From Candidatus Heimdallarchaeum aukensis (GTDB lineage: Archaea > Asgardarchaeota > Heimdallarchaeia > Heimdallarchaeales > Heimdallarchaeaceae), in assembly GCA_021513695.1 (NCBI GenBank), contig CP084166.1, positions 1,280,001-1,344,000 of the forward strand: DNA of 64,000 nucleotides, given 5' to 3'. The notes under the pieces were generated by a model. The model worked only from the letters and a program-made list of their open reading frames with translations. It did not search any database and was not told the origin of the DNA. A program made the translations under genes and the position numbers. Shown one piece after another: positions 9,379-63,971 of the stretch. The stretch's first letter is position 1. Every line of letters starts with the position of its first letter.

Positions 9379-10137
9379 ATGAGTCAATCAGAGCTCCAGT
9401 TATCAGATATTTTTAGCGTAGATAAAGATGGAAAGCCCACAATCAAAATTGTTCTTTTTGGTCCCACCTTAGCTGGAAAAACCAGTATGCTTACCGTTTT
9501 TAATGCTTTAAGAAGAATGGAAGATCCAGATCTTATTGTAAGTTCTCTTACCAAAATCCAAGAATATGGTCGAACAGTTTTCTTTGATCACTCTGTTTTT
9601 CAAACACCACCTTTCAAAGGTAAGAAATTTGATCGTCTTCGTTATCATCTATGGACAGTTCCTGGGGAAGAGAGACATAAGGCCCAAAGAGATATTGTTA
9701 TGAGAGGTGTAGATGCTGTTTTACTATTTTTAAATTTTGAAAAAACTGCTTGGGATTCAAATGTTAAAACAGTGAAAGAAGCAAAAGCAAAAATAGGAGA
9801 AAAATTCGGGAAAAAGATTCCAGTTGTTGCGTATATTAATAAATCAGACCTTCCTCCTGAAGAGCGTACAGATAAGCGTGCGTTTATTACATTTTTACAA
9901 GATATTGAAGCTATTCCAAAAGAGAATGTTGCAAACTATATTATGACTGGTAGTTGTCTTAATGCTCGTAATGACTTATTAACCATCTTAAAATCAGAAA
10001 ATCGTGATGAATACCTTGAAAATGAAAGATTGAAAACTAGTAAGCGTCCTGATTCAGTTTGGTTAGTGGTACGACCTATTCAAAAGCTTACACAATTAGT
10101 CGTACAGCAAAGAATGGAAGTTCTACAAGGCATATAA
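9379..10137 (+). CDS. MglA-like small GTPase (Ras superfamily)
   Basis: P-loop KIVLFGPTLAGKTSML. G3 motif is TVPGE, the MglA-type TxxG(Q) variant with Thr in place of the canonical Asp and Glu at the MglA Gln position, within YHLWTVPGEERHKAQRDIVMRGVDAVLLF. G4 motif NKSD. Confidence 0.7.
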   Translation: MSQSELQLSDIFSVDKDGKPTIKIVLFGPTLAGKTSMLTVFNALRRMEDPDLIVSSLTKIQEYGRTVFFDHSVFQTPPFKGKKFDRLRYHLWTVPGEERHKAQRDIVMRGVDAVLLFLNFEKTAWDSNVKTVKEAKAKIGEKFGKKIPVVAYINKSDLPPEERTDKRAFITFLQDIEAIPKENVANYIMTGSCLNARNDLLTILKSENRDEYLENERLKTSKRPDSVWLVVRPIQKLTQLVVQQRMEVLQGI

Positions 10138-22494: not shown

Positions 22495-22883
22495 TGGAAC
22501 CGCCAAAAATTTGGAGAGAACGCAGAGAGCGATACCTAGGAATAGGAATTATTTGCGAAGATTGTCAAAAAAAGAATTTTCCAAAAACAAGAATATGTCC
22601 TGATTGTGGAAGTGAAAACGTAAAACCTTACAAAATAGCAGAGAGAGGTACATTAAAGTATTTTACTCAGATCATGAATACTGGAGATGAATTAATATTC
22701 AACACACCTTATATTGTTGGTCTAGTCGAGTTAGAGGATGGTATTAAGGTTACAGCGCAAATTGTAGATTGTGATTTTAAAGAGCTAAGAAAAGGAATGA
22801 AATTAGAAAAAACATTCAGAGTACTAGCAAGAAATGGAAAAGAAGGATTAATTAAATATGGATTTAAGTTTAGACCAATCTAA
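22494..22883 (+). CDS. DUF35-type Zn-ribbon/OB-fold protein (scaffold subunit of the archaeal thiolase/HMGCS complex)
   Basis: CEDCQKKNF…CPDCGSE zinc ribbon followed by an OB-like C-terminus. Translationally coupled to thiolase. Confidence 0.7.
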   Translation: MEPPKIWRERRERYLGIGIICEDCQKKNFPKTRICPDCGSENVKPYKIAERGTLKYFTQIMNTGDELIFNTPYIVGLVELEDGIKVTAQIVDCDFKELRKGMKLEKTFRVLARNGKEGLIKYGFKFRPI

Positions 22884-24562: not shown

Positions 24563-25447
24563 TTGAAAACGAGAATGATGAGTATTAAGTTATTAACAGA
24601 TTCTACAACATCCATACCAAAAAGTTTCCTTGATGAGAAGAATATAGCTATGTTAGAGTTATTAATTGAGATAGATGGCGAGCTAAAAAAGGAGATTTCA
24701 GATATTGATATTGACAAATTTATTGAACAAATAGAAAAAGCAGAGAAGCCGTATACTACTAGTATGAGTTCTCCTCAACATGTTATTGAAACTTTTAATT
24801 CAATAATTAAAGAAGGATACTCTACTATATTATATCCATATATGACTTCTCAAACATCTAGCCAAATTAATGCTGTTAACATAGCTAAAAAACATATTGA
24901 TGGAAAACTAGATATAAAATTTTATGACACACAACTAGCGGGGCCTGCAGTTGCACCATTTATTCTTTACGGAGAAAAAATGATTAAAGAGGAATTAAGT
25001 ATTGACGAAATTATAAAAGTTTTTGATAAACTAAAAGAAAAAATTTACACAATAGGTTTCTCTGAGAATTTCAATGCTTTATTCAGAACAGGAAAAGTCA
25101 AAAAGAATCTCAAAACACAAGTAGTTACAAACATGTTAAATCTCAAGCCCTTATTCCAAATTAGAGTTGGAAAAGGTGTTGAAGGATTTGGAGGAGGAAT
25201 AGGATTTAATGGAGCTGTAAAGAAGATTAAAGAAAAAATATTGGATGAAACTGATGAAAAAATAATCTACAATCTTATTCTAACACACTCTTATGCAAAG
25301 GAAAATGCTAAAATGTTAGAGAAGGAAATCAAGAAAATCAGGAAGATCAAAGAAGTAAACTATTTCACTATCCCTCCAGTAATTGTAAATACTGTAGGTA
25401 AAGGAGCAATAATAGCTACTTTATACCCAATCTATGAAAACATATAA
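24563..25447 (+). CDS. DegV family (fatty-acid-binding) protein
   Basis: KLLTDSTTSIP…TSMSSPQHV…YMTSQTSSQINAV…FYDTQLAGPAVAPFIL matches DegV hallmark blocks. Confidence 0.5.
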   Translation: MKTRMMSIKLLTDSTTSIPKSFLDEKNIAMLELLIEIDGELKKEISDIDIDKFIEQIEKAEKPYTTSMSSPQHVIETFNSIIKEGYSTILYPYMTSQTSSQINAVNIAKKHIDGKLDIKFYDTQLAGPAVAPFILYGEKMIKEELSIDEIIKVFDKLKEKIYTIGFSENFNALFRTGKVKKNLKTQVVTNMLNLKPLFQIRVGKGVEGFGGGIGFNGAVKKIKEKILDETDEKIIYNLILTHSYAKENAKMLEKEIKKIRKIKEVNYFTIPPVIVNTVGKGAIIATLYPIYENI

Positions 25448-31695: not shown

Positions 31696-32856
31696 ATGAT
31701 TCCGTACCATGTACAAGTTTTGTTAACTAATGTACCAAACATCGAAGAAGTGTCAATCAAAGAACTTATCGAATTAGATGTGAAAAAAATTAAAGGTATT
31801 GGTGACAAATATGCAAAGGTCTTGTACAGAAAAGGAATCAAGAAAGTAAAAGATTTAGCAAAGTTAGATTCTCAAGAAATAGATTTACCCGAAAAAATAG
31901 TTACTAAATGGATAGTTGCTGCAAGAATTATCGTTAATTCACAAAAAGTTCGCAGAACTGGAAAAATTATTTTCTCAGGTCTATCTCAAGCTGGAAAAAC
32001 AAGTATTGTTTATGTATTAAAGTCAATTGTTGAACTGCCTACAGTAACAATGGGGGTAAAACAAGATTTCATTAAATTTGCAGGGCACAATATTCAAATT
32101 TCAGATATGGGAGGACAAAAAAGATTTCGTGAGATTTACCTAACTACCCCTGATTTGTATTTTGAAAGAACAAAATTGGTTTTCTATGTAATTGATATTC
32201 AAAATAAAAAAAGAATAGATGATTCTCTCGAATATCTGAAAAGATTACTTGCAATTTACCGTTACTTGCACGAAAAACCGTTCATTTCTATCTTTTTCCA
32301 CAAATTTGATCCTGATTTATCCTACAACTTAAAATATGATATTCCACCCATAAAGGAGAAAATAGAGAAAATTTTTTCTCACTATACCGAATTTCAGTAC
32401 AATTTTTTCTACACTTCTATTTACAACCCACCTAGCATATACGTGGGAATTGCTTCAACTCTATCAGAGATATTTCCAGTAATGAGTATTTTAGACGTTT
32501 TACTTAAGGATTTTGCAGAATTACACGGTTTTGATGGTTTACTTATAATGGATAGTACAGGAATGTTAATTGGTCAATTCATACGAGGAGAACAAGAATC
32601 ATTGGTGGAAGAAACCTATTCTGCTTTTAAAGAAGCAAGAAAGATTGAAAAAAACCCTTTCGGCAATATTGTTTTACGAAAAAATATAGCAGACCCTCCA
32701 GGAGGAGAGATAGTTGTACAACAAATCTTTTTACCACACAATGATGGTTTTATCTTTTACTGGAAAAAAGAAGATACTGAAATTGATTTATCAGAGTATA
32801 TGTTAAGTGAGATAACAAAAACCCTTAATCCATGGTTGTATAACCTATTATCGTGA
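31696..32856 (+). CDS. Rag/Arf-like small GTPase with N-terminal HhH-like extension and C-terminal roadblock/LC7-like domain
   Basis: P-loop GLSQAGKTS, DMGGQ (DxxGQ), HKFD instead of NKxD as in Rag/Gtr. C-terminal …FDGLLIMDSTGMLIGQF… is roadblock-like. N-terminal IKGIGDKYAKVLYRKGIKKVKDLAKL is HhH-like. Confidence 0.55.
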   Translation: MIPYHVQVLLTNVPNIEEVSIKELIELDVKKIKGIGDKYAKVLYRKGIKKVKDLAKLDSQEIDLPEKIVTKWIVAARIIVNSQKVRRTGKIIFSGLSQAGKTSIVYVLKSIVELPTVTMGVKQDFIKFAGHNIQISDMGGQKRFREIYLTTPDLYFERTKLVFYVIDIQNKKRIDDSLEYLKRLLAIYRYLHEKPFISIFFHKFDPDLSYNLKYDIPPIKEKIEKIFSHYTEFQYNFFYTSIYNPPSIYVGIASTLSEIFPVMSILDVLLKDFAELHGFDGLLIMDSTGMLIGQFIRGEQESLVEETYSAFKEARKIEKNPFGNIVLRKNIADPPGGEIVVQQIFLPHNDGFIFYWKKEDTEIDLSEYMLSEITKTLNPWLYNLLS

Positions 32857-37233: not shown

Positions 37234-38529
37234 TTGAAAGCTATGACATTAAAGATATTCCTTACAATAGGAGGTTTTTTTGTCTTAGATGACAATAATG
37301 ATGTTATATCTACTAAGACTTTTGAACCTGACCCAGTGTATGTTAGTACAAAGATCTTTAATTTAGAAAGATATAATGAATCTGAAGAATTAAATGCGAT
37401 TCTAGAAGAATATGCTGACACGGAAATTAAAACTAACTCTAGTTTAGTTCGTGATTTTATTCGTTCAAGAAGAAGGAAAGTTTCTTTAGATAATTCATCA
37501 GATGACTTCTATTCATTTCAAAGTTCATTATTTAGCAATTTAGCAAAACATACTAGTATTAAAACAGATGAGATTTATCATCAACTTGTTCGTGAAACTA
37601 ATATATTAATATCAAAAAAACGTGTTGCTGTCGCTAGTCAACGAACTGATAAAATGGTTGTCCATGCTATATTAAGTTTGGATGATATTGTTACTACAAT
37701 CAATCTTTTTATGAGTCGGATTCGAGAATGGTATGGGATTCATTTTCCTGAAATTTTAAAGGAAGTTGAAAACCATGAAACATTTTGCAAGATAATTACA
37801 GAAATTGGAGCAAGACAATTCTACTCAAAAAAAGCATTAGAAGAGTATGGATTTTCTGCTAAAAAAACAGAAAGGATCTATAATTTAGCAAAAAGTTCTA
37901 TGGGCGCAGAATATGATAACAAAGACCTTCTCCCTCTACAACGCTTAGCTCAGCAGACTCTACAATTATTCGAAGAAAAGCGTATGCTCGAAAATTGGAT
38001 AGATGAGCAAGTCAATAAGATTGCTCCTAATTTAAAAGCAATTGTTGGTTCAGCTATTACAGCAAGACTTATCGCTCTTGCTGGAGGTCTTCAAGAGATG
38101 GCACTTCTTCCTTCTTCTACAATTCAACTTCTTGGTGCAGAGAAAGCTCTCTTTAGAGCCTTAAAGACAGGTGCAAAACCCCCTAAACATGGTGTCATTT
38201 ATCAGACTCCTGAACTTCACAGTTGTAAATGGTGGCAAAGAGGTAACATCGCAAGAGCTATTGCTGGAAAATTGACAATTGCTGCCAGAATTGACGCTTT
38301 CCAAGGAGAATACAGAGGAGACGAATTAAAGATGGACCTCGATCAGAAAATTGAGGAAATAAAGGAGAAATATAGTGAACCTCCACAAGGAAAAAAAGAC
38401 CCTGCTCTAATACGTCAGCAAAGACCCCGCGGAAAACCAAAATCTCGATCAAGACAAAAAAACTATGATAAATCCAAAAGTAGGAAACACAAAGGTGGCA
38501 AAAACTATTCCAAAAAAGGAAAAAAATAG
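37234..38529 (+). CDS. nop5: C/D box snoRNP protein Nop56/58 (Nop5)
   Basis: NOP domain …AITARLIALAGGLQEMALLPSSTIQLLGAEKALFRAL…KHGVIYQ…, KK-rich tail, immediately upstream of fibrillarin. Confidence 0.85.
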   Translation: MKAMTLKIFLTIGGFFVLDDNNDVISTKTFEPDPVYVSTKIFNLERYNESEELNAILEEYADTEIKTNSSLVRDFIRSRRRKVSLDNSSDDFYSFQSSLFSNLAKHTSIKTDEIYHQLVRETNILISKKRVAVASQRTDKMVVHAILSLDDIVTTINLFMSRIREWYGIHFPEILKEVENHETFCKIITEIGARQFYSKKALEEYGFSAKKTERIYNLAKSSMGAEYDNKDLLPLQRLAQQTLQLFEEKRMLENWIDEQVNKIAPNLKAIVGSAITARLIALAGGLQEMALLPSSTIQLLGAEKALFRALKTGAKPPKHGVIYQTPELHSCKWWQRGNIARAIAGKLTIAARIDAFQGEYRGDELKMDLDQKIEEIKEKYSEPPQGKKDPALIRQQRPRGKPKSRSRQKNYDKSKSRKHKGGKNYSKKGKK

Positions 38530-38539
38530 GTGACAAATA

Positions 38540-39226
38540 ATGGTAGAACTAAAAAAACACAAATTTGAAAATCTTTTCTGGTTGCATTTTTCAGATGGAA
38601 AGGTTCGATTAGCTACTAAAAACAGCGATCCAGGTAAAAAAGTGTATACAGAAAGGCTCGTAAGTGTAGATGGAAATGAATATAGAACATTTGACCCCTA
38701 CAAAAGTAAATTAGCTGCCGCAATTAGATCGGACTTACAAAACTTTCCTTTTGATGAAGGAGTTAAAGTTCTTTATCTAGGTGCTGCATCAGGAACTACT
38801 GTTTCTCATGTTTCAGATATCATAGGAGATGATGGAGAGATTTATGCAGTAGAATTCTCTCCAAGATCATTAAGAGATTTAGTAACAGTAGCTGAAAGAA
38901 GAAAAAATATTATTCCTATTTTAGCTGATGCAAGGTATCCTGAGACTTACTCTTTCACTGTCCCCCAAGTTGACATTGTCTTTGAGGACGTAGCACAACC
39001 TTTTCAGACTGAGATTTTATGGGTAAATGTTCAAACCTTCCTTAAAAAAGGAGGCTTCTTCTTTATAGCTGTAAAAGCAAGAAGCATAGATGTTACAACT
39101 AGCCCAAAAGTTATTTTTGAACGAGTTAAAAAAGAGATTCTTGAATATGGATTAGAGATAGTCGAAGAAATCAACTTAGAACAATATGAAAAAGATCACA
39201 TGATGTTCGTGGGTAAAAAACCTTAA
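38540..39226 (+). CDS. flpA: fibrillarin (rRNA/tRNA 2'-O-methyltransferase)
   Basis: VLYLGAASGTTVSHVSDI SAM motif. Classic nop5-flpA pair. Confidence 0.9.
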   Translation: MVELKKHKFENLFWLHFSDGKVRLATKNSDPGKKVYTERLVSVDGNEYRTFDPYKSKLAAAIRSDLQNFPFDEGVKVLYLGAASGTTVSHVSDIIGDDGEIYAVEFSPRSLRDLVTVAERRKNIIPILADARYPETYSFTVPQVDIVFEDVAQPFQTEILWVNVQTFLKKGGFFFIAVKARSIDVTTSPKVIFERVKKEILEYGLEIVEEINLEQYEKDHMMFVGKKP

Positions 39227-40353: not shown

Positions 40354-41946
40354 TCAAAGAATTTTACTCATATATGGGCCATCTCTTTCGTAGCCTAGTT
40401 TTCTATAATAATCTCTTACACCAACGCCAGAGATGACAGAAATTTTCTTATAACCTTTTTCGACTCCAATGTCCTCAGCTTTCTGAACTAGTTCTTTTCC
40501 AAAACCTCTATGCTGCCATTCATATTCTTCTTCTCCTTTTTTATGAACAGAAAGGGATTCACCGTAAACATGTAACTCTCTGATAACGATTGTAGGTTGA
40601 GATAGAAATTCAGGTCGATATTTATCCTCACTTAACTCTCTCAGTCGAAGGAAACCAATAATTACATCATGGTTTGTTTCTTCAAAAGACAAAAAGTATT
40701 CAATTCCCTTACTTGCTTTATATTTTCTTTTTACTAGTTCAATTGACTGAGGATCAAATTCTCCTTTGTTCTTGTAGAGATAATGACCAACTTCTCTACA
40801 TCTAATACACCTACACTTTTTGCCTTGTGATTCCATTAAAGCTTGTACATCAAGCCTTAAATCACTTTTTTTGGGACCAGCAACTATTTGATGTGCAGGA
40901 ATGTCTCTTAAAATTCTTTTTATTCGCACGTAAGGAGGAACAAATTCTTTTATTTTGGCAATGAGTTTAATCGTTTCTTCATCTGTTAAAGCTTGGTATT
41001 CTCCTTTTTTCCATAGGTCATAAAGTTTTGTACCAGGTATAACCATTGTAGGATAAATCTTAATTTCATCAGGTTGATAATCTTGAGATTGAAAAATTGT
41101 TTTAAAAGCTTCTATATCTCTTTCTTTTGTTGAACCTGGGAGTCCAGGCATCATATGTGCTGTTATTTTCAATCCTGCATCTTTTGTAAGCTGAATAGCT
41201 CTGATTGAATCAGTAACAGTATGCCCCCTAATCATTTTTTCGAAAACATCATCATAAACTGTTTGAATACCTAGTTCAAGTCTTGTAACACCATAATTTA
41301 ACAATTCATCTATCGTTTGTTTATCTATTTGATCTGGTCTCGTTTCTGCAGTTAACCCAACACATCGATGTTTAGCGTGTTCATTAATTTCATGAGCTTG
41401 CTCTATTGTATCAGAATCTACCCCATTAAATCCATCAAACATTCTTCTAATAAACCATTCTTGGTATTCTTTCGGTTGGTAAGTAAAAGTTCCTCCCATA
41501 ATAATAGCATCTATTTTTTCTGTAGAATGACCTATAGCTTCTAACTGATTAATCCTTTCAGTAACTTGAAGATAAGGGTCATAGTTATTTCTTATCCCTC
41601 TTCTTGATGTAGGTTCATAACCTGTATAACTTTGAGGTCTGTCAACATCTGGTCCCCCAGGACACATAATGCATTTACCATGAGGACAAGCCCAAGGCCT
41701 AGTCATTACTGCGACGATTGCCACACCAGATAGTGTTCTAACTCTTCTTTTCATTAAATAAGGACGAAGTTTTTCTAGTTCTTCATCATTACATATAGCG
41801 AGAATATCACTATTTCTAGGGAAAAAGGATAGAGAATACTCTTTAGATATCTTTCTTTTAATTTGATCAACGATTTTATCAGTTAATTTAGACTGACTCA
41901 ACAACTGTTTTTTAATTTCAGTAAAAGCAGAAAGAGATTTGTTCAT
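40354..41946 (-). CDS. elp3: Elp3-type radical SAM / GNAT tRNA modification enzyme
   Basis: Radical SAM Cys cluster CPHGKCIMCPGG and a C-terminal GNAT domain. Confidence 0.9.
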   Translation of the reverse strand: MNKSLSAFTEIKKQLLSQSKLTDKIVDQIKRKISKEYSLSFFPRNSDILAICNDEELEKLRPYLMKRRVRTLSGVAIVAVMTRPWACPHGKCIMCPGGPDVDRPQSYTGYEPTSRRGIRNNYDPYLQVTERINQLEAIGHSTEKIDAIIMGGTFTYQPKEYQEWFIRRMFDGFNGVDSDTIEQAHEINEHAKHRCVGLTAETRPDQIDKQTIDELLNYGVTRLELGIQTVYDDVFEKMIRGHTVTDSIRAIQLTKDAGLKITAHMMPGLPGSTKERDIEAFKTIFQSQDYQPDEIKIYPTMVIPGTKLYDLWKKGEYQALTDEETIKLIAKIKEFVPPYVRIKRILRDIPAHQIVAGPKKSDLRLDVQALMESQGKKCRCIRCREVGHYLYKNKGEFDPQSIELVKRKYKASKGIEYFLSFEETNHDVIIGFLRLRELSEDKYRPEFLSQPTIVIRELHVYGESLSVHKKGEEEYEWQHRGFGKELVQKAEDIGVEKGYKKISVISGVGVRDYYRKLGYERDGPYMSKIL

Positions 41947-49840: not shown

Positions 49841-51937
49841 TTGCTTCCGATGGTTGATAACAAGTTAAAGCAAATAAAAGAATTATTCAAAAAGGGGTAT
49901 TTTAGTGAAATTTTGTCTATTATTCAAGAGAAACTCTCTGAAGCAGATAATAGACAAAATTTATGGGAGTACTATTTCTATTTAGCACAAGTTCAATATA
50001 TGCTTGCAAAGAACAAAGATGCTTTAAAAGCTATAGAAAAAACCTTATCTCTCATTAAAGAGATCCAAATTGAAACTAAGAGCGTAATAGAAATTCAGAT
50101 TATGTATGGTAAGATTTTAAGAAGAAACAGGAAACTTCAGGAAGCAAGGCAAGTATATTTAGATTTATTAAGAAAGGAAGAAAAAGACATTAGTAAAGAG
50201 ACAAAAATAGTTATTTTTCATAATTTAGCTAATGTTTATTTAGAATTAAAAGAATACAAAGAAGCCGAGAAACTACTAAAAAAAGCTTTATCCCTCTCTA
50301 AAGAATTAAAAAAAGAAGAAAAAATAGCTACAGTATATTCAAGTTTTGCTGCTTTTAAATACTTATTAGGCGAAGTAGATACAGCCTTAGAGTACTATTT
50401 AAAAAGCCTAGATATTCGAGAAAAACTTCAAGATGAGCAAGGAAAAGCAATGTTATATTTCAACATTGGAACAATATATTCTAATATACAAAATAGAGAA
50501 AATGCTGAAAAATATCTTTTAAATGCTATAAAATTATTCAAATCTACGAACAATTCCAAAGGAGAGACTGCAGCAAAAGAAACACTAGCAACAATGTATT
50601 ATAATTTAGGTAAAATAGATGAAACTATTAAGTGGTTAGATCATCTTATAGACGTTCCTGAGTATAACCCTAAACAACTTCAAAAGGTATCTATACTTAT
50701 TGACTGCCTTTTACAACGAAATCAAATTAAACCACTAGAAAATATTTTATTAAAATCAATTAACTCAATAAACAATTTAGAAAAAAATATCTTAGAGAAG
50801 TATTGGAAAGAAATTTTTCGGATTAAATATATCTATGTTACCTTTATTTTAGAAAAAGAAGACCAAGAAAAGGCTTTAGAAATGCTAGAAGAACTAAAAA
50901 ATGAAGAAAGCTTAAGAAACAATTGGGATAATATAATTCTTGTAAGCTTAGAAAAAGCACGCATATATGAAAACATGTCGAATTTAGAACATGCAATCAA
51001 TGAATTAGAAATTGTAGAAGAAATTGGAAAAAAACAAAAAAGAAATATTAAACTAGTTATGATAAAGGAAAGCCAAATATATTTTAGATTAGGAAAATAT
51101 AAGAAAACGCTTAAGAAACTTGAGAACGTAAGAGATTTAGTTGAAAACAGGCATAAATATATCATTGAAACAATTATTCGTTCTTTGAAAATAGCTTTAA
51201 AACAAAAACTTATAGATTCAACAAAATTATTAGAATCAAATTTCAAAGATATTGATTATGAATTAGTTTTCTTACAAGACATATTAGTTCAAATTCAGAA
51301 AAATAGTTTGAAGATCAAGAATGTTGACAAATTATGCAAGAAAATAGGAATATGTAGTGAAAAACTTACTTTTTCAAACTATCTCTTGATTCACAAATTA
51401 TTAACAAATGAGGAGCTCGACAGAGAACTTTATTTGGAAAGCAATTCAAGATTAGAACAAATTTACAGAAGAGTTATTGAAAATCAAATACTTCCTGAAG
51501 AATTTAGAGAACATTTTGAAAAATCATTTCAAAGTGATTCTTGGGATTATAAAGAAAAGAGTAGAATTCTAGACATTTTATGTATAGGAGTTTTGAATGA
51601 CTTAATATCAAAAAATGTAATTTCACAAGTCTCTTGGAAAAAAGAAGAAAAGGCAATTAATGAAAGTTTATTGAAAATAAAGAAAATATTATACACAAGG
51701 CTCATTGAAGCTCATTCGCTATATGATTTCCAATTAGAGAATGAAGAAAAAGGAGTGTTCCTATTAAAAGAATCACAGCAATTTATTAGACAGTTGATTT
51801 ATACAATAACAGATTTTATAAAAAGTAATTTTTCGGAATTTACAAGAGAACAAATTCAAACCTATCTGTTTATCGTTGTGAAAGTAACCATAGGAACAAT
51901 TGAACAATTATTTTTAGTTGATTTTAATGAAAGATAA
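49841..51937 (+). CDS. TPR-repeat protein
   Basis: 698 aa with repeated 34-residue helical hairpin patterns (…YFNIGTIYSNIQNRENAEKYLLNAIKLF…). Confidence 0.55.
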   Translation: MLPMVDNKLKQIKELFKKGYFSEILSIIQEKLSEADNRQNLWEYYFYLAQVQYMLAKNKDALKAIEKTLSLIKEIQIETKSVIEIQIMYGKILRRNRKLQEARQVYLDLLRKEEKDISKETKIVIFHNLANVYLELKEYKEAEKLLKKALSLSKELKKEEKIATVYSSFAAFKYLLGEVDTALEYYLKSLDIREKLQDEQGKAMLYFNIGTIYSNIQNRENAEKYLLNAIKLFKSTNNSKGETAAKETLATMYYNLGKIDETIKWLDHLIDVPEYNPKQLQKVSILIDCLLQRNQIKPLENILLKSINSINNLEKNILEKYWKEIFRIKYIYVTFILEKEDQEKALEMLEELKNEESLRNNWDNIILVSLEKARIYENMSNLEHAINELEIVEEIGKKQKRNIKLVMIKESQIYFRLGKYKKTLKKLENVRDLVENRHKYIIETIIRSLKIALKQKLIDSTKLLESNFKDIDYELVFLQDILVQIQKNSLKIKNVDKLCKKIGICSEKLTFSNYLLIHKLLTNEELDRELYLESNSRLEQIYRRVIENQILPEEFREHFEKSFQSDSWDYKEKSRILDILCIGVLNDLISKNVISQVSWKKEEKAINESLLKIKKILYTRLIEAHSLYDFQLENEEKGVFLLKESQQFIRQLIYTITDFIKSNFSEFTREQIQTYLFIVVKVTIGTIEQLFLVDFNER

Positions 51938-52508
51938 TAAAGCTAAAGCTAGGTGGATGCTTTATCCATATCGCCTTGCTCATCACCCAACATGTGAAAA
52001 GTACAAAGATCATGTTTACACAATAAAAGGAATAAAAGTTTGCAGAGGATGCTTTAACCTCTACCTGGGTCAGATAGTTGGTTTAATTTTAGCCTTTATT
52101 CTAAGTTTTGTTTTAGATGTAGAATTCTGGATACCTTTTATTTTAACTTATGTTCTCTATTCTTTTACACTTCTTAATCTAAAGTTCGAAATTCCTAGAT
52201 TAATTAAAGACTTTTTCAGATTTTTATTAGGTATTGCAGTAATTATGTCTTATTTAACTGTAATACTATCAATATTTGAACTAATTAAAGGAATAAATAT
52301 CCTTGCTATAGTCTCACTTTTTTTAGTTGGATTAACACACCTTTTATCAAGAACACTATTAGTGAAATGGAGAAATGGTCAAAATAGAAAAATCTGTCTC
52401 AGTTGTGAACAATATCATCTTCCTCGATGTGAAGGAATGAAATTAGCATACGATAGAATGATTTCTCTTCAAGTCTCAGAGTTAGGAGATGCTTTTAGTG
52501 ACGATTGA
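51918..52508 (+). CDS. membrane protein with two CxxC pairs (DUF2085-like?), overlaps TPR gene end by 20 nt
   Basis: CEKY…CRGC … CLSCEQYHLPRC. Four hydrophobic helices. Confidence 0.35.
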   Translation: MILMKDNKAKARWMLYPYRLAHHPTCEKYKDHVYTIKGIKVCRGCFNLYLGQIVGLILAFILSFVLDVEFWIPFILTYVLYSFTLLNLKFEIPRLIKDFFRFLLGIAVIMSYLTVILSIFELIKGINILAIVSLFLVGLTHLLSRTLLVKWRNGQNRKICLSCEQYHLPRCEGMKLAYDRMISLQVSELGDAFSDD

Positions 52509-52565: not shown

Positions 52566-54137
52566 ATGGCAATGAATTCATTAACTTTAAACATTTTAGG
52601 GTTAGTTATTTTATTTATATTTGTTTTTTCTGTTCTAGCAACAGTAGAAATATTAAAGATAAAACAACTTTTAGAAGGAAAAACATCAAGAAAAGTAATT
52701 CATATATTAGTAGGAAATGTGGTTATTGTTTTTCCATTTGTTTTCTCAAATTTATGGTTTGCTTTAGTGGGCCCATTATTCTTTGTACTTTTCACTTATT
52801 TAACATGTCCAGGAAGCCCTATTAAAAAATTCAGACTTAAAAGTGTTGAAGAGGGACACACTTATGGTACTGTTTTTTATGCAATATCTTTAACAATTCT
52901 TGTTGTTTTATTTTTTGAACCAGAACACTTCAATCAAAAAAATGTAATAATTTTTGCTTCTTTTCTTCCTTTGGTATGGGGAGATGGAATTAGTGCTGTT
53001 ATTGGATTAAAGTATGGTAAAAAGGGAGAATTTACGATATTCAAAGACAAAAAATCACTAATTGGAAGTTGGTCTCTTGCTATTTCTTCTTTGGTTGTAG
53101 TTACTATTATATTGACCTTTTTCCAGATTAATTTCTTTGTTTCTCTTTACATTGGATTACTTATAGCTTTTATCTCAACCATAATTGAAGTAGTTTCACC
53201 AAAAGGGTTAGATAACATCACAATTCCAGCAGTTAATGCTTTGGTTCTCTATTTAATGTTTAAATCGTTAAATAACAATTTTAATACTTTAGAGGAAAGG
53301 ATTTCAAAAACCACCATCCTTATCGCATTATGTTTATCTTTTGTCATAGCTGCAGCAAGTATTTCAGTAAAAGCACTAACGTGGGATGGAGCTCTAGCTG
53401 GATTCTTTTTTGGCATTGTCATTTTTGGATTAGGTGGGTGGAGTTGGGGCGCGATGTATTTTGCATTTTTCCTAATTGGGAGCTTAACCACATTCTTTAA
53501 GAAAAAGGAAAAAAGCGACATAACCAAGGAATTTGAAAAAGGATCAACAGCAAGAGATAGCATACAAGCTTCAGTGAATAGTTTTATTCCTGTAATTGCA
53601 GCTTTATTGAATTTAATTTTTCCTTCGCACTTTTTCACTGTTATAACTGCAGGAGCTTTAGCTACAAGTCTAAGTGATACTTTAGCTACTGAAATAGGTT
53701 CGCTATCCAAAAAAAACCCAAGAGAAGCAATTAGACCATGGAAAGAAGCAAAAAAAGGTTCTCCAGGAGCAATTTCAATATTAGGAACATCAGCTTCATT
53801 ATTGGGTGCAGGAATAATAGCAATAGCAGGATGGATAGGTAGTCTCTTTGAAAAAACTTCTTTATTCCAAAATAATACAGCCATATTACTTTTAATAATA
53901 ACATTTAGTGGTTTCATTGGAGCTTATTTTGATAGCGTTTTTGCAGAAACAGTTCAATGTCTGAATAAATGTTCAATCTGTGGAAAAATAACAGAAAAAA
54001 CTTATCATTGTGAAACAAAAACAGAGTATTTTAGAGGTATTAAATTCATAAAAAATGATTTGGTAAACCTACTAAGCATCACAGTAGGTTCAGTTCTCTC
54101 TATTACCTTCGTATTTCTTGTTGAGCTATTGTATTAG
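52566..54137 (+). CDS. fusion of a CTP-dependent polyprenol (phytol/dolichol) kinase-like domain (VTE5/SEC59 family) and a DUF92/VTE6-like polyprenyl-phosphate kinase-like domain
   Basis: N-terminal half: RKVIHILVGN… and WGDGISAVIGLKYGK…KKSLIGSW (VTE5-like GDG…GR/K.fG…KS.eGS). C-terminal half: GGWSWGAMYF…RDSIQASVNSFIP (DUF92-like). C-terminal CxxC pairs. Confidence 0.5.
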   Translation: MAMNSLTLNILGLVILFIFVFSVLATVEILKIKQLLEGKTSRKVIHILVGNVVIVFPFVFSNLWFALVGPLFFVLFTYLTCPGSPIKKFRLKSVEEGHTYGTVFYAISLTILVVLFFEPEHFNQKNVIIFASFLPLVWGDGISAVIGLKYGKKGEFTIFKDKKSLIGSWSLAISSLVVVTIILTFFQINFFVSLYIGLLIAFISTIIEVVSPKGLDNITIPAVNALVLYLMFKSLNNNFNTLEERISKTTILIALCLSFVIAAASISVKALTWDGALAGFFFGIVIFGLGGWSWGAMYFAFFLIGSLTTFFKKKEKSDITKEFEKGSTARDSIQASVNSFIPVIAALLNLIFPSHFFTVITAGALATSLSDTLATEIGSLSKKNPREAIRPWKEAKKGSPGAISILGTSASLLGAGIIAIAGWIGSLFEKTSLFQNNTAILLLIITFSGFIGAYFDSVFAETVQCLNKCSICGKITEKTYHCETKTEYFRGIKFIKNDLVNLLSITVGSVLSITFVFLVELLY

Positions 54138-55410
54138 CAACTGTGAATTCTATTTCTTCTTTATCTGAAAGGCACTCAATACCTGGCAGCAGTTCTCCTT
54201 TCATTAAAGCTAAACTTGCACCTCCACCTGTAGATATAAAACTAATGTCATCTTGAAAACCAAATTTCTCAAAAGCTGCTGCAGAGTCTCCACCACAGAT
54301 AATAGAATAGATTTTATTTTCAATTAAAAAGCGTGCAATTTCTTTAGTACCATTCTCAAAGTCTTCTTTTTCAAAAACCCCTAGAGGTCCTTGCCATATA
54401 ACTTGTTTTGAGTTCTTAAGTACTTCTTTGAACATTTTAATTGTCTCACTGCCTATGTCTACTCCCATATGATTTTCTTGTATTGTTGTAATAGGAACTT
54501 CTTCAACATGTGTTGGATCATCTAACTCATCACAAACAACCACATCAACGGGCAAGTGAATTTTTGTTCCATTTAAGTTGGCTTCATGGAGATAATTCCG
54601 CACATCATCTAATTTAGATACATCTATTACTGATTTACCCACATTATATCCTTTAGCAGATAGAAAAGTGTAAGCCATTCCTCCCCCAATTATTATATTA
54701 TCAGCAACACCAATTAAATACTTAATCACATCAAGTTTATCTTTAACCTTCTTTCCACCTAAAATTACAGTAAATGGGCGTTTAGGGTTACTTAAAGCTT
54801 GGCTGAAAAATTTCAATTCTTTCTCAACCAAAAATCCATACCCTGCTTCCTCAAAGTATGCAGCTACACCATAAGTAGATGCGTGTTTTCGATGAGATGT
54901 GGCAAAAGCATCATTAATGTAGACATCAGCTAACTTTGCTAGTTGTCTTGCAAATTCTGGGTCATTTGCTTTTTCACCAGGATGAAAACGAGGATTTTCT
55001 AACAACAATATTTCTCCAGGTTTAAGTTTTTTTACCATCGCTTCAACTTCAGGCCCAATACAGTCTTTTGCCCTATAAACTGTCGTAAGTGGAAAGAATT
55101 CTTTTAATCTTTTATATATGGGAAGTAAATTGTAACGTTCATCTCTTTCTCCCCCTGGTCTTCCTAAGTGTGACAAAACTATAATTTTACAGTTTTCATT
55201 ATGAAGATAGAATAGAGTTGGTAATGTAAATCGAATTCTTCTTGCATCTGTTATTTGCCTGTAATCATTCAACGGTACGTTAAAATCAACTCTTACAAGA
55301 ACTGTTTTATTTCTTAAATCAATATCTGTTATAGATTTCTTCTGCTTAAATTTCAGAATATTTTTCATTTTTTCTACAGTTTCTGCGTCTAAGTGATTGT
55401 TATAGTTCAT
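54103..55410 (-). CDS. pgk: phosphoglycerate kinase
   Basis: LVRVDFNVPL, LLENPRFHPGE and GGGASLALMKGELLPG motifs. The 3' end overlaps the convergent upstream gene by 35 bp. Confidence 0.85.
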   Translation of the reverse strand: MNYNNHLDAETVEKMKNILKFKQKKSITDIDLRNKTVLVRVDFNVPLNDYRQITDARRIRFTLPTLFYLHNENCKIIVLSHLGRPGGERDERYNLLPIYKRLKEFFPLTTVYRAKDCIGPEVEAMVKKLKPGEILLLENPRFHPGEKANDPEFARQLAKLADVYINDAFATSHRKHASTYGVAAYFEEAGYGFLVEKELKFFSQALSNPKRPFTVILGGKKVKDKLDVIKYLIGVADNIIIGGGMAYTFLSAKGYNVGKSVIDVSKLDDVRNYLHEANLNGTKIHLPVDVVVCDELDDPTHVEEVPITTIQENHMGVDIGSETIKMFKEVLKNSKQVIWQGPLGVFEKEDFENGTKEIARFLIENKIYSIICGGDSAAAFEKFGFQDDISFISTGGGASLALMKGELLPGIECLSDKEEIEFTVANTIAQQEIRR

Positions 55411-60537: not shown

Positions 60538-61248
60538 CTATTGGTTTAAAAAATAAATTATTACACTAATCGATAATGGAATATAAAGATTATCAAATAA
60601 GTTTTTACAAATAAATTCTAAGACAGTAGCGAATATTGCTAATAGAAAGATAATAAGAAAGTTCTCAATAATACTGATTTTGTACATATAATAAGTAATT
60701 GTTAAAGCTGTAAGAGAACCCAGAAAAACAGCAAATGAGCCTTCTAAGGTTTTTGGATAGTTTCTAATGACTTTGGATTTTCCGAAAGATCGACCCACAA
60801 GTTCTCCCATTCCATCGCCAAGAGATAAGACAAATATTCCTCCCACAAAAGCGAAAGGAGAATCAAGAGTTATGAAAAAAACGTAAATTAGCATTAAAGC
60901 AGTCAGAATAATATTTATACCTAATTCTTTTTTTGGTTCATCGATTCTATGATCTTTTGAAATAAAGAAATCAAATAATTTTATTGACGGAATTATTGAC
61001 AAAATACCCACAATCAGAACAGAAATAAAAAAGATTGCTAAAATGTCATAAAAATTAGTGTTTAGAGCTCTTAAAATTCCAATATAAAGGAGAAAGGACA
61101 TATGATCAAGTTTCCTTTTTCTCCAAGAGCAGAGCTTGGTTTTTGAAAGTAAAAAAGAAGCTAAAAAAAGAAAAGCAAGTCCTAGTACTGATAGAAAAAT
61201 TGACACCCAATTCATTTCTTTGTAATCGAAAATCATTATCAGGTTCAT
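60538..61248 (-). CDS. CTP-dependent polyprenol kinase family membrane protein (stand-alone VTE5/SEC59-like)
   Basis: SLGDGMGELVGRSFGKSK…KTLEGSFAVF matches the family signature. 6-7 TM helices. Confidence 0.5.
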   Translation of the reverse strand: MNLIMIFDYKEMNWVSIFLSVLGLAFLFLASFLLSKTKLCSWRKRKLDHMSFLLYIGILRALNTNFYDILAIFFISVLIVGILSIIPSIKLFDFFISKDHRIDEPKKELGINIILTALMLIYVFFITLDSPFAFVGGIFVLSLGDGMGELVGRSFGKSKVIRNYPKTLEGSFAVFLGSLTALTITYYMYKISIIENFLIIFLLAIFATVLEFICKNLFDNLYIPLSISVIIYFLNQ

Positions 61249-61277: not shown

Positions 61278-63971
61278 TTAGACCCCAGTTATTGCTTCTG
61301 TTCTTGAGCCAAGAATGATATTTGTAAATACTAGACTAAGTATTTGTAGGAACATTAAGATTACTCCTAAAGCACAGAATATTTGAAACCTTGCATTAAC
61401 TTGATTTGCCATCATCCATGTTAATGTTCCACCAAGTTCTGAAGTGATTAGAAAAACTGTAGTTGAGACTTCAGACAAGCAGTACAAGAACGAAACAAGA
61501 CTTCCTGCGAACACATTAAGAGAAATCATAGGTACAGTTATTTTTGCAAAAGTTTTCATTCTTCCAGCTCCCAGATTAAAGGAAGACTCTTCTAGCACTT
61601 TATCCATCTGTTGTAAACCAGCATATGCTGCTCTAACTGTGAATGGGAATTTTCTAATTGTATATGAGAGTACTAAAAGTACATAAGCGATACCCACAAA
61701 AGGATCAAGGTGCGCTTTTACTACAAATTTATTCATAAACAAGTTAAATGAATTAGGATTGTTAGTGAAAATTGTACCCCAATCAAAAGTTCGATAATAT
61801 CCAAGCGCTAAAACGATTCCAGGTATAGCAATTGGAACAGTAACCAGTGAGTCAAAAGCTGCTTTTCCTTTAAACTCTTTTCTACTCACCACATAAGCTG
61901 CCAATGAGCCTAAAATAACAATTAATATTGTTGCAGCAAAACTGTAAAGTAGAGTATTTCGGACAAAACTTGGAATATTATACTGCGAAGATACAAAGAT
62001 AAGTCTATAATTTTCTAAAGTAAAACTCATGTTTTTTATATTAGATGAACCTAGTGTTTCGCTAATTGACATCATTATTATACCAACATGTACGATTAAA
62101 GAAAGTGCGAATAGGATAACAAGGAATGGATAAATAATCAACAACTTCCATTTTGCTTTACTTAACCTATATTGGCCTGCACGCCCCTTAGAAACCATAG
62201 AATACTGTCTTAGCGAAACATATTTTCGTATAACTAGAAATCCTGCTATAGCAATCACTAACAGAAGACCACCCAAGACACATACTTCTGGAGTTATAAT
62301 GTTAGAACTTGAAAGTTGAAAATCAGAAAAGATGTAGTATGTTAGAAATTGCCTTGCAAAATTATCTCCCATACCAACGAAGATAATTGGTGTTCCTACA
62401 TCTTCCATTGATAATATAAGTACTAAAATAGCTCCTGCACCAATACCAGGAAGAGCTAGAGGTAAAGTCACAGTAAAGAATAATCTAAAACTACCAGCTC
62501 CAAGGTTTTCAGCTTGTTCTTCCATACTTGGGTCAACATTAACAAATGAAGAGAAAGCGTTTAAATAAACTAAAGCATAAAAATGAAAACTTTGTACAAA
62601 GCAAATTGCAACAAAACCTTCAATAATAAATCTTGAATGGAAGACTGGAATAAGGAAGAGGGTATTAAGTAATCCATTAGGGCCTAAGAAATATCTGAAA
62701 CCCATTCCGCTAATAAAGGGTGGAATAATTAAAGGAGCGAGGGCTAAAACACTGAAGAACTTCTTTCCAGGAAATTCGTACCTAGCTAAAATAAAAGCTA
62801 ATGATGTTCCTAATAGAACTGAAATAAGAGTGGTAACAAGGCCAAGAATTAATGTGTTTAGAACAATTCCCCTTGATACACCTACTAGCTTGTAAGTTGT
62901 AATCTCAATATTATCTTGATATTGGTATATTTTTTCAAATTCTGTCATATCATGAGTATCTAGAATTAGTACTCCATCACCCCCATTTGCAACATATACA
63001 AAATCAGTTATTGGGTCATAAAATATATCTTCTACACCAACTATTCCTAAACTATAGGATAAAAGGTGAGATATATTGTACGGATTTGTAACATTATAAG
63101 CTTCTATACTATAAAAGTCTCCAATTTTCGAAGTTATAAATGCTTTATTATTAAAAACGTTGATATTATCTGCACGCCTGTTTTCTCTGTGAACCAAAGT
63201 AATGTTAGAAGGGTCTGAAATATCAAGAACTACGAAACCTGTACTTCCCAGTGACAAATATGCGTAATCATCAATAATTTGTATTTCTTTTGCTCTCAAA
63301 CTTATACCGTCGATCTCTTCCACTCTTGAATATAAAGAAGGATTCGAGGGGTCAGAAATATCAAAAATCATTAACCTTGAATATGAACCAACTAAATAAG
63401 CATAATTATCTTTAATTTTAATATCATCTGAATCTGTCTCTAATGTAGCGTTTCCAATTAGTTCTGGGGCAGATGGATCACTTATATCATAAATTAAGAA
63501 ACCATCATCTTGATAGTCAAGAAAAGCGTAATTATCATGTATAGTAATAAATTCTGTTTTATTGGTGGGTAAAGGAGTTATGGATACAATGTCTGTACCT
63601 TCACCAACATCGCTTACATTGAAAATCATTAATCCCTGTCTTGAATCTGAAGCAAATAGTAGTTCTCCACGTTGTTCAATATCTGTTACAAAACTATTAT
63701 CAAATTTTATTTGGTTGATTTCCTCAACATTATTGTAATCAGTTACATTTAGAACTTCAATCCCTTCAAAACCCTCTGCGGTATAGATATAACCATTTGA
63801 ATAGAGTATAGACTTTGCATAACCTCCAAATTCATAATTCTGGTTTTTTGTAAAAAATGAAGTTGAGGAATCACCTTTAAAATTAAAGAATTTTTCATCA
63901 GAAAAAACACGACCAAAAGCGTAAAAAGTTATTTGACCTGACTCTTCTAAATAAATTGCAACATTTATCAA
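61278..63971 (-). CDS. fusion of an N-terminal LVIVD-repeat beta-propeller-like domain and a two-module ABC permease (Fe3+/polyamine-type, 2x BPD_transp_1)
   Basis: Repeats …IFDISDPSNPSL…, …VLDISDPSNITLV…, …YNVTNPYNISHL…. These are followed by ~550 aa with about 12 TM helices in two homologous halves. Confidence 0.55.
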   Translation of the reverse strand: MINVAIYLEESGQITFYAFGRVFSDEKFFNFKGDSSTSFFTKNQNYEFGGYAKSILYSNGYIYTAEGFEGIEVLNVTDYNNVEEINQIKFDNSFVTDIEQRGELLFASDSRQGLMIFNVSDVGEGTDIVSITPLPTNKTEFITIHDNYAFLDYQDDGFLIYDISDPSAPELIGNATLETDSDDIKIKDNYAYLVGSYSRLMIFDISDPSNPSLYSRVEEIDGISLRAKEIQIIDDYAYLSLGSTGFVVLDISDPSNITLVHRENRRADNINVFNNKAFITSKIGDFYSIEAYNVTNPYNISHLLSYSLGIVGVEDIFYDPITDFVYVANGGDGVLILDTHDMTEFEKIYQYQDNIEITTYKLVGVSRGIVLNTLILGLVTTLISVLLGTSLAFILARYEFPGKKFFSVLALAPLIIPPFISGMGFRYFLGPNGLLNTLFLIPVFHSRFIIEGFVAICFVQSFHFYALVYLNAFSSFVNVDPSMEEQAENLGAGSFRLFFTVTLPLALPGIGAGAILVLILSMEDVGTPIIFVGMGDNFARQFLTYYIFSDFQLSSSNIITPEVCVLGGLLLVIAIAGFLVIRKYVSLRQYSMVSKGRAGQYRLSKAKWKLLIIYPFLVILFALSLIVHVGIIMMSISETLGSSNIKNMSFTLENYRLIFVSSQYNIPSFVRNTLLYSFAATILIVILGSLAAYVVSRKEFKGKAAFDSLVTVPIAIPGIVLALGYYRTFDWGTIFTNNPNSFNLFMNKFVVKAHLDPFVGIAYVLLVLSYTIRKFPFTVRAAYAGLQQMDKVLEESSFNLGAGRMKTFAKITVPMISLNVFAGSLVSFLYCLSEVSTTVFLITSELGGTLTWMMANQVNARFQIFCALGVILMFLQILSLVFTNIILGSRTEAITGV

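Follow-up and report, generated by a model that had tools for sequence, protein, structure and literature searches.

A single gene of Candidatus Heimdallarchaeum aukensis joins a polyprenol-kinase-like domain to a DUF92 domain, and this fusion is real and widespread, being common in bacteria. By analogy with plant enzymes, its product, UJG41939.1, is probably an enzyme that regenerates diphosphates from free isoprenoid alcohols. The gene lies in a stretch of 64,000 nucleotides that was analysed as a whole (hereafter, the window; Table 1), and it adds an Asgard member to an architecture already described computationally in 2015.

Within isoprenoid metabolism, prenol salvage, in which an alcohol becomes a monophosphate and then a diphosphate, is poorly mapped; in the accessible literature, its genes are experimentally reported only from plants (VTE5, FOLK, VTE6) and from Plasmodium (PfPolK, first step only). 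Publicly, UJG41939.1 is annotated as “DUF92 domain-containing protein” and nothing more, and fusion proteins are labelled only “DUF92” or “TIGR00297 family”. The annotation names the DUF92 half only because the kinase half falls under the Pfam threshold, so that a likely prenol-kinase function is missed when the metabolism of Asgard archaea and of many bacteria is reconstructed. With an architecture known since 2015 and found widely, the fusion is a useful lead for annotation and experiments rather than a discovery. In the fused form, both steps are testable in a single gene, and naturally split pairs found in Bacillota offer matched controls for each half.

Table 1 Features of the fusion locus and of its paralogue, in window coordinates
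Feature	Position	Strand	Basis or remark
Upstream neighbour, 196 aa, ~4 TM, HHPxC...CxxC and CxxC...C	51918..52508	+	conserved position
Whole fusion gene, 523 aa (UJG41939.1, Ca. Heimdallarchaeum aukensis)	52566..54137	+	ATG start
N-terminal domain, like COG0170-type CTP-dependent polyprenol/phytol/dolichol kinases, 8 TM	52566..53306	+	motifs, named relatives, model
R42-K43-V-I-H46, “charged clamp” R-K-x-x-H	52689..52703	+	in 42/42 sequences
D140-x6-G147-x3-G151-x10-K162-K163-S-L-I-G167, DOLK-type CTP motif with small deviations	52983..53066	+	pattern test
E208...G214-x-D216-N217, acidic motif closing the N-domain active site	53187..53216	+	E...DN in 42/42
C-terminal domain, DUF92/COG1836/arCOG02245, 8 TM	53307..54137	+	PF01940
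D371-T-L-A-T-E376-I-G378, first conserved Asp, DUF92 counterpart of D140...G147	53676..53699	+	invariant columns, hhalign
D456-S457...Q464, second acidic motif, aligned with E208	53931..53957	+	invariant columns, hhalign
C469-x2-C472...H481-C482 cluster, cytoplasmic loop before last TM helix	53970..54011	+	conservation
Polyprenol-kinase-like paralogue, 236 aa, UJG41945.1 (K9W45_05635)	60538..61248	-	N-domain HMM

Two apparently related domains in one predicted membrane protein

The ORF translation has an intact frame with no internal stops, and comprises a polyprenol-kinase-like domain (residues 1–247) and a DUF92 half starting at residue 248. The AF2 model (pLDDT 90.1, pTM 0.87) contains 16 long helices, eight of them within residues 5–234, and Lys and Arg residues are distributed 33 versus 2 between alternate loops. 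A 16-TM membrane protein with an N-out/C-out topology is predicted, in which the conserved polar motifs of both domains are all located on the cytoplasmic side. Searching the PDB with the full-length sequence gave no meaningful match, and the fold search returned CarS and CdsA with scores barely above the helical-bundle background. When the two halves are compared to each other with hhalign, D140 aligns with D371 and G147 with G378; the halves thus appear to be distant homologues. Conservation was derived from an alignment of 41 fusions, and motif patterns were tested on 42 sequences.

The sequence-only reading had described the N-terminal half as a VTE5-like kinase, and the motifs it quoted are all present: RKVIH (residues 42–46), GDGIS (139–143), GLKYGK (147–152) and KSLIGSW (163–169). 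Invariant residues of this domain are R42, H46, G101, T102, V103, D140, K163, G167, E208, D216 and N217. The clamp and the eight helices are shared with PfPolK, a validated stand-alone CTP-dependent farnesol/geranylgeraniol kinase of Plasmodium falciparum modelled with eight TM helices and with Arg29, Lys30 and His33 clamping the CTP pocket (PMC10849223). Unlike the fusion, PfPolK carries no DUF92 domain, and its assay gave no diphosphate (PMC10849223). The CTP motif resembles that of Sec59/DOLK, DXXAXXXGXXXGX8KKTXEG, which also faces the cytoplasm (Shridas and Waechter 2006, quoted in PMC13586052), as predicted here. However, DOLK has about 15 TM helices with a C-terminal catalytic part, acts on C80–C100 dolichols and differs in motif spacing and in two residues: in the fusion, the spacer is 10 instead of 8, the Ala is moved by one position, T is replaced by S and E by I. 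A relaxed pattern is found in 35 of the 42 sequences and the strict one in 4.

The profile check suggested along with that assignment fails, since residues 1–247 scanned alone against PF01148 reach 16.9 bits (E=0.0059) for a cut-off of 24. NCBIfam gave no match at E≤10 for the N half, for the stand-alone paralogue or for named phytol-kinase relatives. On the other hand, a profile built on the N domain picks up proteins of about 225 residues named phytol kinase or diacylglycerol/polyprenol kinase family, and its relatives are called polyprenol or phytol kinase by NCBI, UniRef and JGI, with E-values down to 1e-52. Because the PF01148 match is sub-threshold, the identity of the N half rests on the motifs and on these named relatives.

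The C-terminal half was proposed to be a DUF92/COG1836 member, and PF01940 confirms it at residues 257–508 with E=2.7e-54 (184.6 bits, cut-off 27.5), covering model positions 2–250 of 251. With TIGR00297, a hypothetical equivalog whose cut-off is 205.85, the score is only 90.2 bits, and a bacterial fusion (P0040) likewise stays below it with 106.4 bits; the fused subfamily is therefore a divergent DUF92 branch, its C half being no close orthologue of the canonical stand-alone proteins. Residues R330, D331, Q334, D371, E376, G398, G401, G407, D456, S457, Q464, N497 and N501 are invariant, D371 and D456 being so in the 41 fusions and also in a set of 13 sequences, stand-alone DUF92 proteins among them. 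From the hhalign register, these two residues may be equivalent to the Asp residues of CdsA. Both domains have been placed in the cytidylyltransferase superfamily, with conserved Asp pairs, two conserved Asp of arCOG02245 being proposed to bind the di-metal centre (Makarova, Galperin and Koonin 2015, PMC5898192). The Cys/His cluster (C469, C472, H481, C482), flanked in the AF2 model by short β strands at 466–468 and 487–490, is a putative Zn-binding hairpin. It is nearly invariant in the 41 fusions and is also found in most stand-alone DUF92 proteins; it is therefore a general DUF92 feature and not a fusion-specific one.

Candidate function and substrate

The best-supported function is a sequential conversion of prenol to prenyl phosphate and prenyl diphosphate at the cytoplasmic face, by analogy with plant VTE5 and VTE6. 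According to the accessible part of the literature, VTE5, a phytol kinase, and then VTE6, a phytyl-phosphate kinase, convert the alcohol to monophosphate and diphosphate in plants and cyanobacteria. They belong to the same two families as the fusion halves and act in sequence; in plants they are two polypeptides, whereas H. aukensis has one chain. The study that predicted VTE6 reportedly used clustering or fusion of COG1836 with phytol kinase. A role of COG1836 in phytol-phosphate metabolism was predicted by comparative genomics (Gerdes et al. 2011), and VTE6, which acts on a C20 phosphate, is the only characterised DUF92 protein in the accessible sources.

In the proposed mechanism, one enzyme of about 16 TM helices would combine two domains that are distant relatives within the CTP-dependent intramembrane cytidylyltransferase/kinase superfamily. 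The COG0170-type domain would use CTP to convert a free isoprenoid alcohol to its monophosphate, and the DUF92/VTE6-type domain would add the second phosphate. Because all polar motifs are predicted to be cytoplasmic, the monophosphate could diffuse to the second site within the same leaflet and the same polypeptide. In an archaeon with ether lipids, such an enzyme may salvage geranylgeraniol or a phytol-type C20 alcohol (or farnesol) into GGPP-type diphosphates. The phytol used by VTE5 and VTE6 derives from chlorophyll, which cannot be the case of the substrate in a non-photosynthetic archaeon. We consider a bifunctional CTP-dependent prenol and prenyl-phosphate kinase with a C20 (or farnesol) salvage role to be moderately likely; in doing so, we infer the catalysis, the nucleotide donor, the chain length, any channelling and the physiological role. 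The salvage function put forward in the sequence-only reading was likewise an argument from homology only. In Sulfolobus, both prenol and prenyl-phosphate phosphorylation were reported in 1996, with no genes assigned to them in the accessible literature. The two-step reaction is the same, also in an archaeon, but was attributed to two separable enzymes known only as activities; the fusion family is the obvious candidate for them.

A phytol- or geranylgeraniol-specific role cannot be general, because most carriers are bacteria without chlorophyll or ether lipids. The substrate could instead be a long-chain polyprenol or dolichol (C55–C60), its two-step phosphorylation recycling the glycan carrier for N-glycosylation or for the envelope. 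We regard this as rather unlikely, with several observations in its favour. The N domain has been described as closest to Sec59 dolichol kinase, and uppS is the only conserved genomic context of arCOG02245 (PMC5898192), which suggests longer polyprenols. In addition, most carriers are bacteria using undecaprenyl carriers, and, in the window, a gene for a GT4 glycosyltransferase is located two to four genes upstream of the fusion; in a Heimdall relative, such a gene directly precedes a 188-residue ORF. In contrast, VTE6, the characterised DUF92 member, acts on a C20 phosphate, and neither uppS nor an oligosaccharyltransferase gene is found near the fusion in the window. Moreover, since a carrier-lipid cycle needs the monophosphate and not the diphosphate, the second phosphorylation would be without obvious use in it.

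Less probable still is a DUF92 half acting as a CTP-dependent cytidylyltransferase like CdsA or CarS, its product from the prenyl monophosphate of the N half then being a CDP-activated prenol or some other activated lipid. The accessible description of VTE6 as a phytyl-phosphate kinase argues against it. So does the absence of the CdsA signature, the PROSITE pattern S-x-[LIVMF]-K-R-x4-K-D-x-[GSA]-x2-[LIF]-[PGS]-x-H-G-G-x-x-D-R-x-D: neither this signature nor its HGGxxDR core occurs in any of the 42 whole proteins. To our knowledge, CDP-prenol is known from no organism. A more elaborate version, in which the fusion would be a CDP-prenol machine for an undiscovered prenyl transfer, with the Cys/His cluster and the Heimdall-specific Cys-rich membrane protein encoded upstream as accessory elements, is very improbable; it keeps a small probability since the accessible literature describes no product for any prokaryotic DUF92 protein.

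It is also very unlikely that one half alone is catalytic, the other being a degenerate, structural or regulatory duplicate, with a single phosphorylation as the outcome. Such an arrangement would fit the apparent homology of the halves, tandem homologous domains often including an inactive one, and an N half too divergent for Pfam or NCBIfam. However, both halves keep their motif residues unchanged in archaeal and bacterial sequences that share about 25–30% overall identity, and loci at which the halves are split keep both genes.

That the N half is a CDP-diglyceride or CDP-archaeol synthase of the CdsA/CarS type is highly improbable. It would account for the only Pfam match, PF01148, being to a “Cytidylyltransferase family”, for the UniRef name of the stand-alone paralogue (“Phosphatidate cytidylyltransferase”) and for the fold matches. 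CdsA (4q2e) and CarS (5guf) are nevertheless similar to the fusion at the fold level only and transfer CMP, whereas phosphate transfer is proposed here. As noted above, none of the 42 sequences has the CdsA signature, and each of them has both the RKxxH clamp and E...DN. PF01864 (CarS) did not match the fusion, either whole or as the N half alone, the N-domain profile retrieved no CdsA or CarS chain from the PDB by sequence, and the relatives bear kinase names. As the sequence-only reading had supposed, the N half would thus be a divergent member of the polyprenol/phytol/dolichol kinase lineage rather than of the CdsA one.

Continuity and spread of the fusion

A continuous ORF with an architecture of about 500–530 residues is found at 74 of 82 related loci, in independent assemblies that include complete chromosomes (CP084167.1). 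The Heimdall fusions form one clade of the same length, with identities of 39–96%, and the domain junction of UJG41939.1 contains no Met, the nearest being M231 and M297. An assembly or frameshift artefact joining two genes, which seven bacterial genomes with two genes and one Heimdall contig with a frameshifted fusion (L022) might suggest, is effectively refuted by this recurrence, by the constant length of the Heimdall clade and by the absence of a start codon at the junction; the earlier claim of a genuine fusion therefore holds.

At the seven bacterial loci, the halves are adjacent, separate genes lying in frame, and these split pairs are from Bacillota, Clostridium hominis NSJ-6 (locus L078) being one carrier. 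Treating 7/7 in-frame pairs as seven independent trials (P~5e-4) is ruled out by the NJ tree: because six of the seven share one clade, only a few events were involved. A genome scan with a 9-sequence subset of the 41-sequence alignment showed the carriers to be mostly bacteria. Relatives are encoded, at the least, in 150 clusters (50% identity) and 321 species genomes, most of them bacterial.

The fusion had been presented as not being a characterised system in archaea, which overstated its novelty. Mbar_A3310 of Methanosarcina barkeri was described in 2015 as an N-terminal Sec59/COG0170-like domain followed by COG1836/pfam01940, and the two-domain arCOG02245 proteins were predicted to catalyse a kinase step of isoprenoid metabolism (PMC5898192). 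Going by its description, Mbar_A3310 is also archaeal and shares the two-domain architecture, but belongs to Methanosarcinales and not to Asgard archaea, and the uppS context of arCOG02245 is not seen here.

Gene neighbourhood and stand-alone paralogue

In Heimdallarchaeia, the conserved neighbours of the fusion are a Cys-rich membrane ORF of about 190 residues and PGK. Homologues of the former are directly upstream of the fusion in most of about 25 Heimdall loci (43–55% identity; 89% in H. endolithica), and were not detected in two Heimdall loci (L022, L025) or in any bacterial locus. The upstream gene is possibly co-transcribed with the fusion and is only tentatively counted with the same system. 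It has no significant family match, DUF2085-like matches being non-significant. Neither in the window nor in Heimdall relatives does an isoprenoid or lipid gene adjoin the fusion, and the three bacterial loci examined have none beside it either, containing unrelated housekeeping genes only. Overall, gene context gives no clue to the substrate.

A second kinase-like ORF, UJG41945.1, had been noted 6 kb away, and it does exist. Pfam and NCBIfam gave no match to it, but it aligns along its entire length with the N-domain HMM at 74.8 bits (E=7e-23), where 200 shuffles reached 7.9 bits at best. It contains R45-K46-L-D-H49, D145-x6-G152-x3-G156-x8-P-K-T-L-E-G-S and E211...D-N, and appears to be a distant paralogue and a real member of the N-domain family. 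Its proximity had been taken to strengthen the idea of an elaborated polyprenol phosphorylation, to which it adds little: identity to the fusion N half is 28% over 93 residues (BLASTP), and a Heimdall relative at 52% identity has no counterpart at the syntenic position. Four homologues were found, two of them near-identical, and in our survey they are essentially confined to the genus Heimdallarchaeum. UJG41945.1 is about equally far from Heimdall and bacterial N halves (25–37% identity), which rules it out as a recent duplicate of the fusion N half.

Identity of the two halves

The C-terminal half of the fusion is unambiguously a DUF92 domain, as proposed in the sequence-only reading: residues 257-508 match PF01940 with 184.6 bits (E=2.7e-54). 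It scores 90.2 bits against the hypothetical-equivalog model TIGR00297, far under the cut-off of 205.85, and therefore belongs to a divergent DUF92 branch. Scanned alone, the N-terminal half has no match in NCBIfam, and its sole Pfam match, PF01148 (E=0.0059), stays under the gathering score, so that only one of the two proposed family assignments passes its Pfam threshold. Because of this sub-threshold score the kinase half is never annotated: each public record encountered names the protein either 'DUF92 domain-containing protein' or 'TIGR00297 family'.

Relatives of the N-terminal half were searched with a profile of 20 N-terminal domains. Stand-alone proteins of ~225 residues were retrieved with E-values down to 1e-57 (among the five top matches, two are truncated fusion copies and one is an unnamed fragment). 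They are named 'diacylglycerol/polyprenol kinase family protein' at NCBI and 'phytol kinase' in UniRef and JGI. The motifs quoted in the sequence-only reading are all present in the ORF. An R-K-x-x-H clamp, described too in PfPolK, the validated farnesol/geranylgeraniol kinase of Plasmodium (PMC10849223), and an E...DN motif are conserved in all 42 sequences examined. In addition, the domain carries the dolichol-kinase CTP motif, DXXAXXXGXXXGX8KKTXEG (PMC13586052), in slightly altered form. None of the 42 sequences shows the CdsA signature. A grouping of the N half with this cytidylyltransferase, which would have counted against the sequence-only reading, was not borne out.

The AlphaFold2 model, for which 41 homologues were used, has high confidence (pLDDT 90.1, pTM 0.87) and contains 16 long helices, eight in each half. 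With helix boundaries taken from the model, alternate loops hold 33 versus 2 Lys and Arg residues. The predicted topology is N-out/C-out, placing all conserved polar motifs of both halves on the cytoplasmic side, as expected of NTP-using enzymes. Profile-profile comparison of the halves aligned 183 columns (E=1.7e-4, probability 50%) with D140/D371, G147/G378, KSLIGS/ISILGT and E208/D456 in register. The suggested kinship, weak by this alignment alone, agrees with the published HHpred placing of pfam01940 in the pfam01148 superfamily (Makarova, Galperin and Koonin 2015, PMC5898192).

The same study related COG1836/pfam01940 to pfam01148, noted that the metal-binding Asp pair is conserved, and described several archaeal COG1836 members, such as Mbar_A3310, with an extra N-terminal Sec59/COG0170-like domain. 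The fusion was therefore correctly read, and its architecture is already known; the lineage is new. The searchable literature yielded no experimental characterisation of this architecture.

A C-x2-C...H-C (or H-x-C) cluster, located in the final cytoplasmic loop, is nearly invariant in aligned fusions. Since most stand-alone DUF92 proteins also have it, it is possibly a metal site, so far undescribed, that the whole DUF92 family shares.

Distribution and continuity of the fusion

Searching one genome per species turned up a relative in 321 genomes. The best 80 all encode both halves; about 25 are Heimdallarchaeota and the remainder bacteria (KSB1, Calditrichota, Bacteroidota/Cytophagia, Ignavibacteria, Kryptoniota, Fidelibacterota, Thermotogota, Bacillota), with two cultured carriers, Clostridium hominis and Anaeromonas gelatinilytica. 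An exhaustive HMM search gave 4,474 representatives at E<=1e-30, of which the best 150 all exceed 400 bits and are nearly all full-length fusions, a few being N-terminally truncated. Full-length homologues (477-546 residues, 50-57% identity) are abundant in Heimdallarchaeia, and related proteins of ~480-512 residues occur at ~30% identity. The closest match, P0001 (96%), has a 90%-identity cluster that contains UJG41939.1, from the same contig as UJG41945.1; among species-representative genomes the nearest is that of Ca. H. endolithica PR6 (86% amino-acid identity).

Among 82 loci (the genome scan gave 80; L081 and L082 were added), 74 have one uninterrupted frame across both halves and one contig is frameshifted. 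In seven bacterial loci the halves are two adjacent genes that invariably share a frame, the second starting 1-30 codons past the stop. In the window's gene, the domain junction lacks a Met. An assembly artefact is hence excluded as the origin of the fusion, and the frameshift-joined pair considered in the sequence-only reading is not borne out. The split pairs (L043, L052, L059, L070, L073, L075, L078; Bacillota, Thermotogota and Muribaculaceae) suggest that fused and split forms interconvert as a stop codon is gained or lost. A neighbour-joining tree groups six of the seven, together with continuous fusions, in a single Bacillota-type clade, so that the number of independent events must be small.

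Heimdall sequences are monophyletic in this tree. A contig labelled Candidatus Thorarchaeota (L012, JBHLQZ010000183.1) is nested in their clade and has the Heimdall-type upstream-ORF/fusion/phosphoglycerate kinase synteny; it is therefore probably mis-binned or mislabelled.

Putative function

In the best-supported reading, the fusion would phosphorylate a free isoprenoid alcohol twice in sequence, first to the monophosphate and then to the diphosphate. This reading draws on the family membership of both halves, their conserved catalytic-type residues, the persistent coupling of the two genes, fused or adjacent, and the plant VTE5/VTE6 precedent. A kinase step in isoprenoid metabolism was already the probable role given to COG1836 proteins (PMC5898192), which had been listed under 'phytol-phosphate metabolism' (Gerdes et al. 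2011). Later work on VTE6 characterised it as a phytyl-phosphate kinase. As substrates, C20 alcohols would fit an ether-lipid archaeon and the alcohol-to-diphosphate phosphorylating activities reported in Sulfolobus. Long-chain polyprenols are a serious alternative, favoured by the bacterial distribution of the fusion and by uppS, the conserved context reported for arCOG02245 (PMC5898192). That the DUF92 half transfers cytidylyl groups instead of acting as a kinase is an unlikely possibility.

P0123, a 365-residue PAP2 phosphatase-family protein from a Nanoarchaeota MAG, weakly matches the polyprenol-kinase domain profile (E=3.8e-4); a kinase-like region may be joined to the phosphatase in this protein.

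Gene context, the second kinase and other window genes

Features of the window
Feature	Position	Strand	Remarks
Eukaryote-like Asgard genes	9379-10137, 10255-11301, 31696-32856, 37234-39226, 40354-41946
Adjoining CDP-alcohol phosphatidyltransferase and phosphatidylserine decarboxylase genes	11333-12749	-
Tandem duplication	14100-18288 and 18285-22473		4189 bp, 100% identity, period 4185
HMG-CoA-synthase-like gene copies	16088-17134 = 20273-21319
Thiolase gene copies	17137-18333, 21322-22494
CxxC...CxxC ORF	22494-22883		129 aa, past copy 2
DegV-family (fatty-acid-binding) gene	24563-25447	+
Upstream neighbour of fusion	51918-52508	+	196 aa, ~4 TM helices, Cys-rich
Fusion gene	52566-54137	+	523 aa, intact, ATG start
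Antisense ORF	53249-53917	-	222 aa, wholly within fusion gene; probably spurious
Cys/His cluster	53970-54011		fusion aa 469-482
Phosphoglycerate kinase gene	54103-55410	-	35-nt 3' overlap with fusion gene (54103-54137)
Stand-alone kinase	60538-61248	-	N-domain HMM match end to end, 74.8 bits, E=7e-23
LVIVD-permease gene	61278-63971	-	897 aa

No isoprenoid gene adjoins the fusion; the window's lipid genes (CDP-alcohol phosphatidyltransferase, PS decarboxylase, the duplicated thiolase/HMG-CoA-synthase pair, DegV) lie 28-41 kb upstream. At three bacterial fusion loci the neighbours are unrelated housekeeping genes. At most of the ~25 Heimdall loci, a ~190-residue Cys-rich four-TM ORF precedes the fusion and a convergent phosphoglycerate kinase gene follows. 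The window's upstream ORF has the conserved motifs YPYRLAHHPxC...CRGC and CxxCxQ(F/Y)xxPRCxG, and is kept among these loci at 43-55% identity (89% in H. endolithica). It has no counterpart in bacterial fusion loci and no significant match in Pfam or NCBIfam, where DUF2085-like matches recur at E 0.8-5. Both neighbours are uninformative on the role of the fusion. The relative at L081 has fusion and phosphoglycerate kinase genes without overlap.

The second kinase, 100% identical to UJG41945.1 (K9W45_05635), is a real family member by the N-domain HMM (best of 200 shuffled sequences, 7.9 bits), with R45-K-x-x-H49, D145-x6-G-x3-G-x8-PKTLEGS and E...DN motifs. It shares 28% identity over 93 residues with the fusion N half and is about as far from Heimdall N halves as from bacterial ones; it is a distant paralogue. 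A search of 5.8 billion proteins gave just four homologues, two of them near-identical Heimdallarchaeum sequences, and in a Heimdall relative at 52% identity the flanking transglutaminase and LVIVD-permease genes directly adjoin, the kinase missing between them. It is thus a genus-level addition, and lends little weight to the earlier idea of an elaborated pathway. In the window its gene and the LVIVD-permease gene share a strand, with the kinase gene 29 nt downstream; the permease gene's product joins an LVIVD beta-propeller with two BPD_transp_1 ABC-permease domains.

The phosphatidyltransferase and decarboxylase pair resembles an archaetidylserine-to-ethanolamine head-group pathway. The exact tandem duplication comprises the 3' portion of a subtilase gene together with the HMG-CoA-synthase-like and thiolase genes, which look like the enzymes that open the archaeal mevalonate pathway. 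As the copies are perfectly identical, the duplication is either very recent or an artefact of assembly. The eukaryote-like genes comprise a small Ras/Roc-like GTPase, an actin-like ALP/MreB-like protein, a Gtr1/RagA-Arf-type GTPase, Nop5 with fibrillarin, and ELP3.
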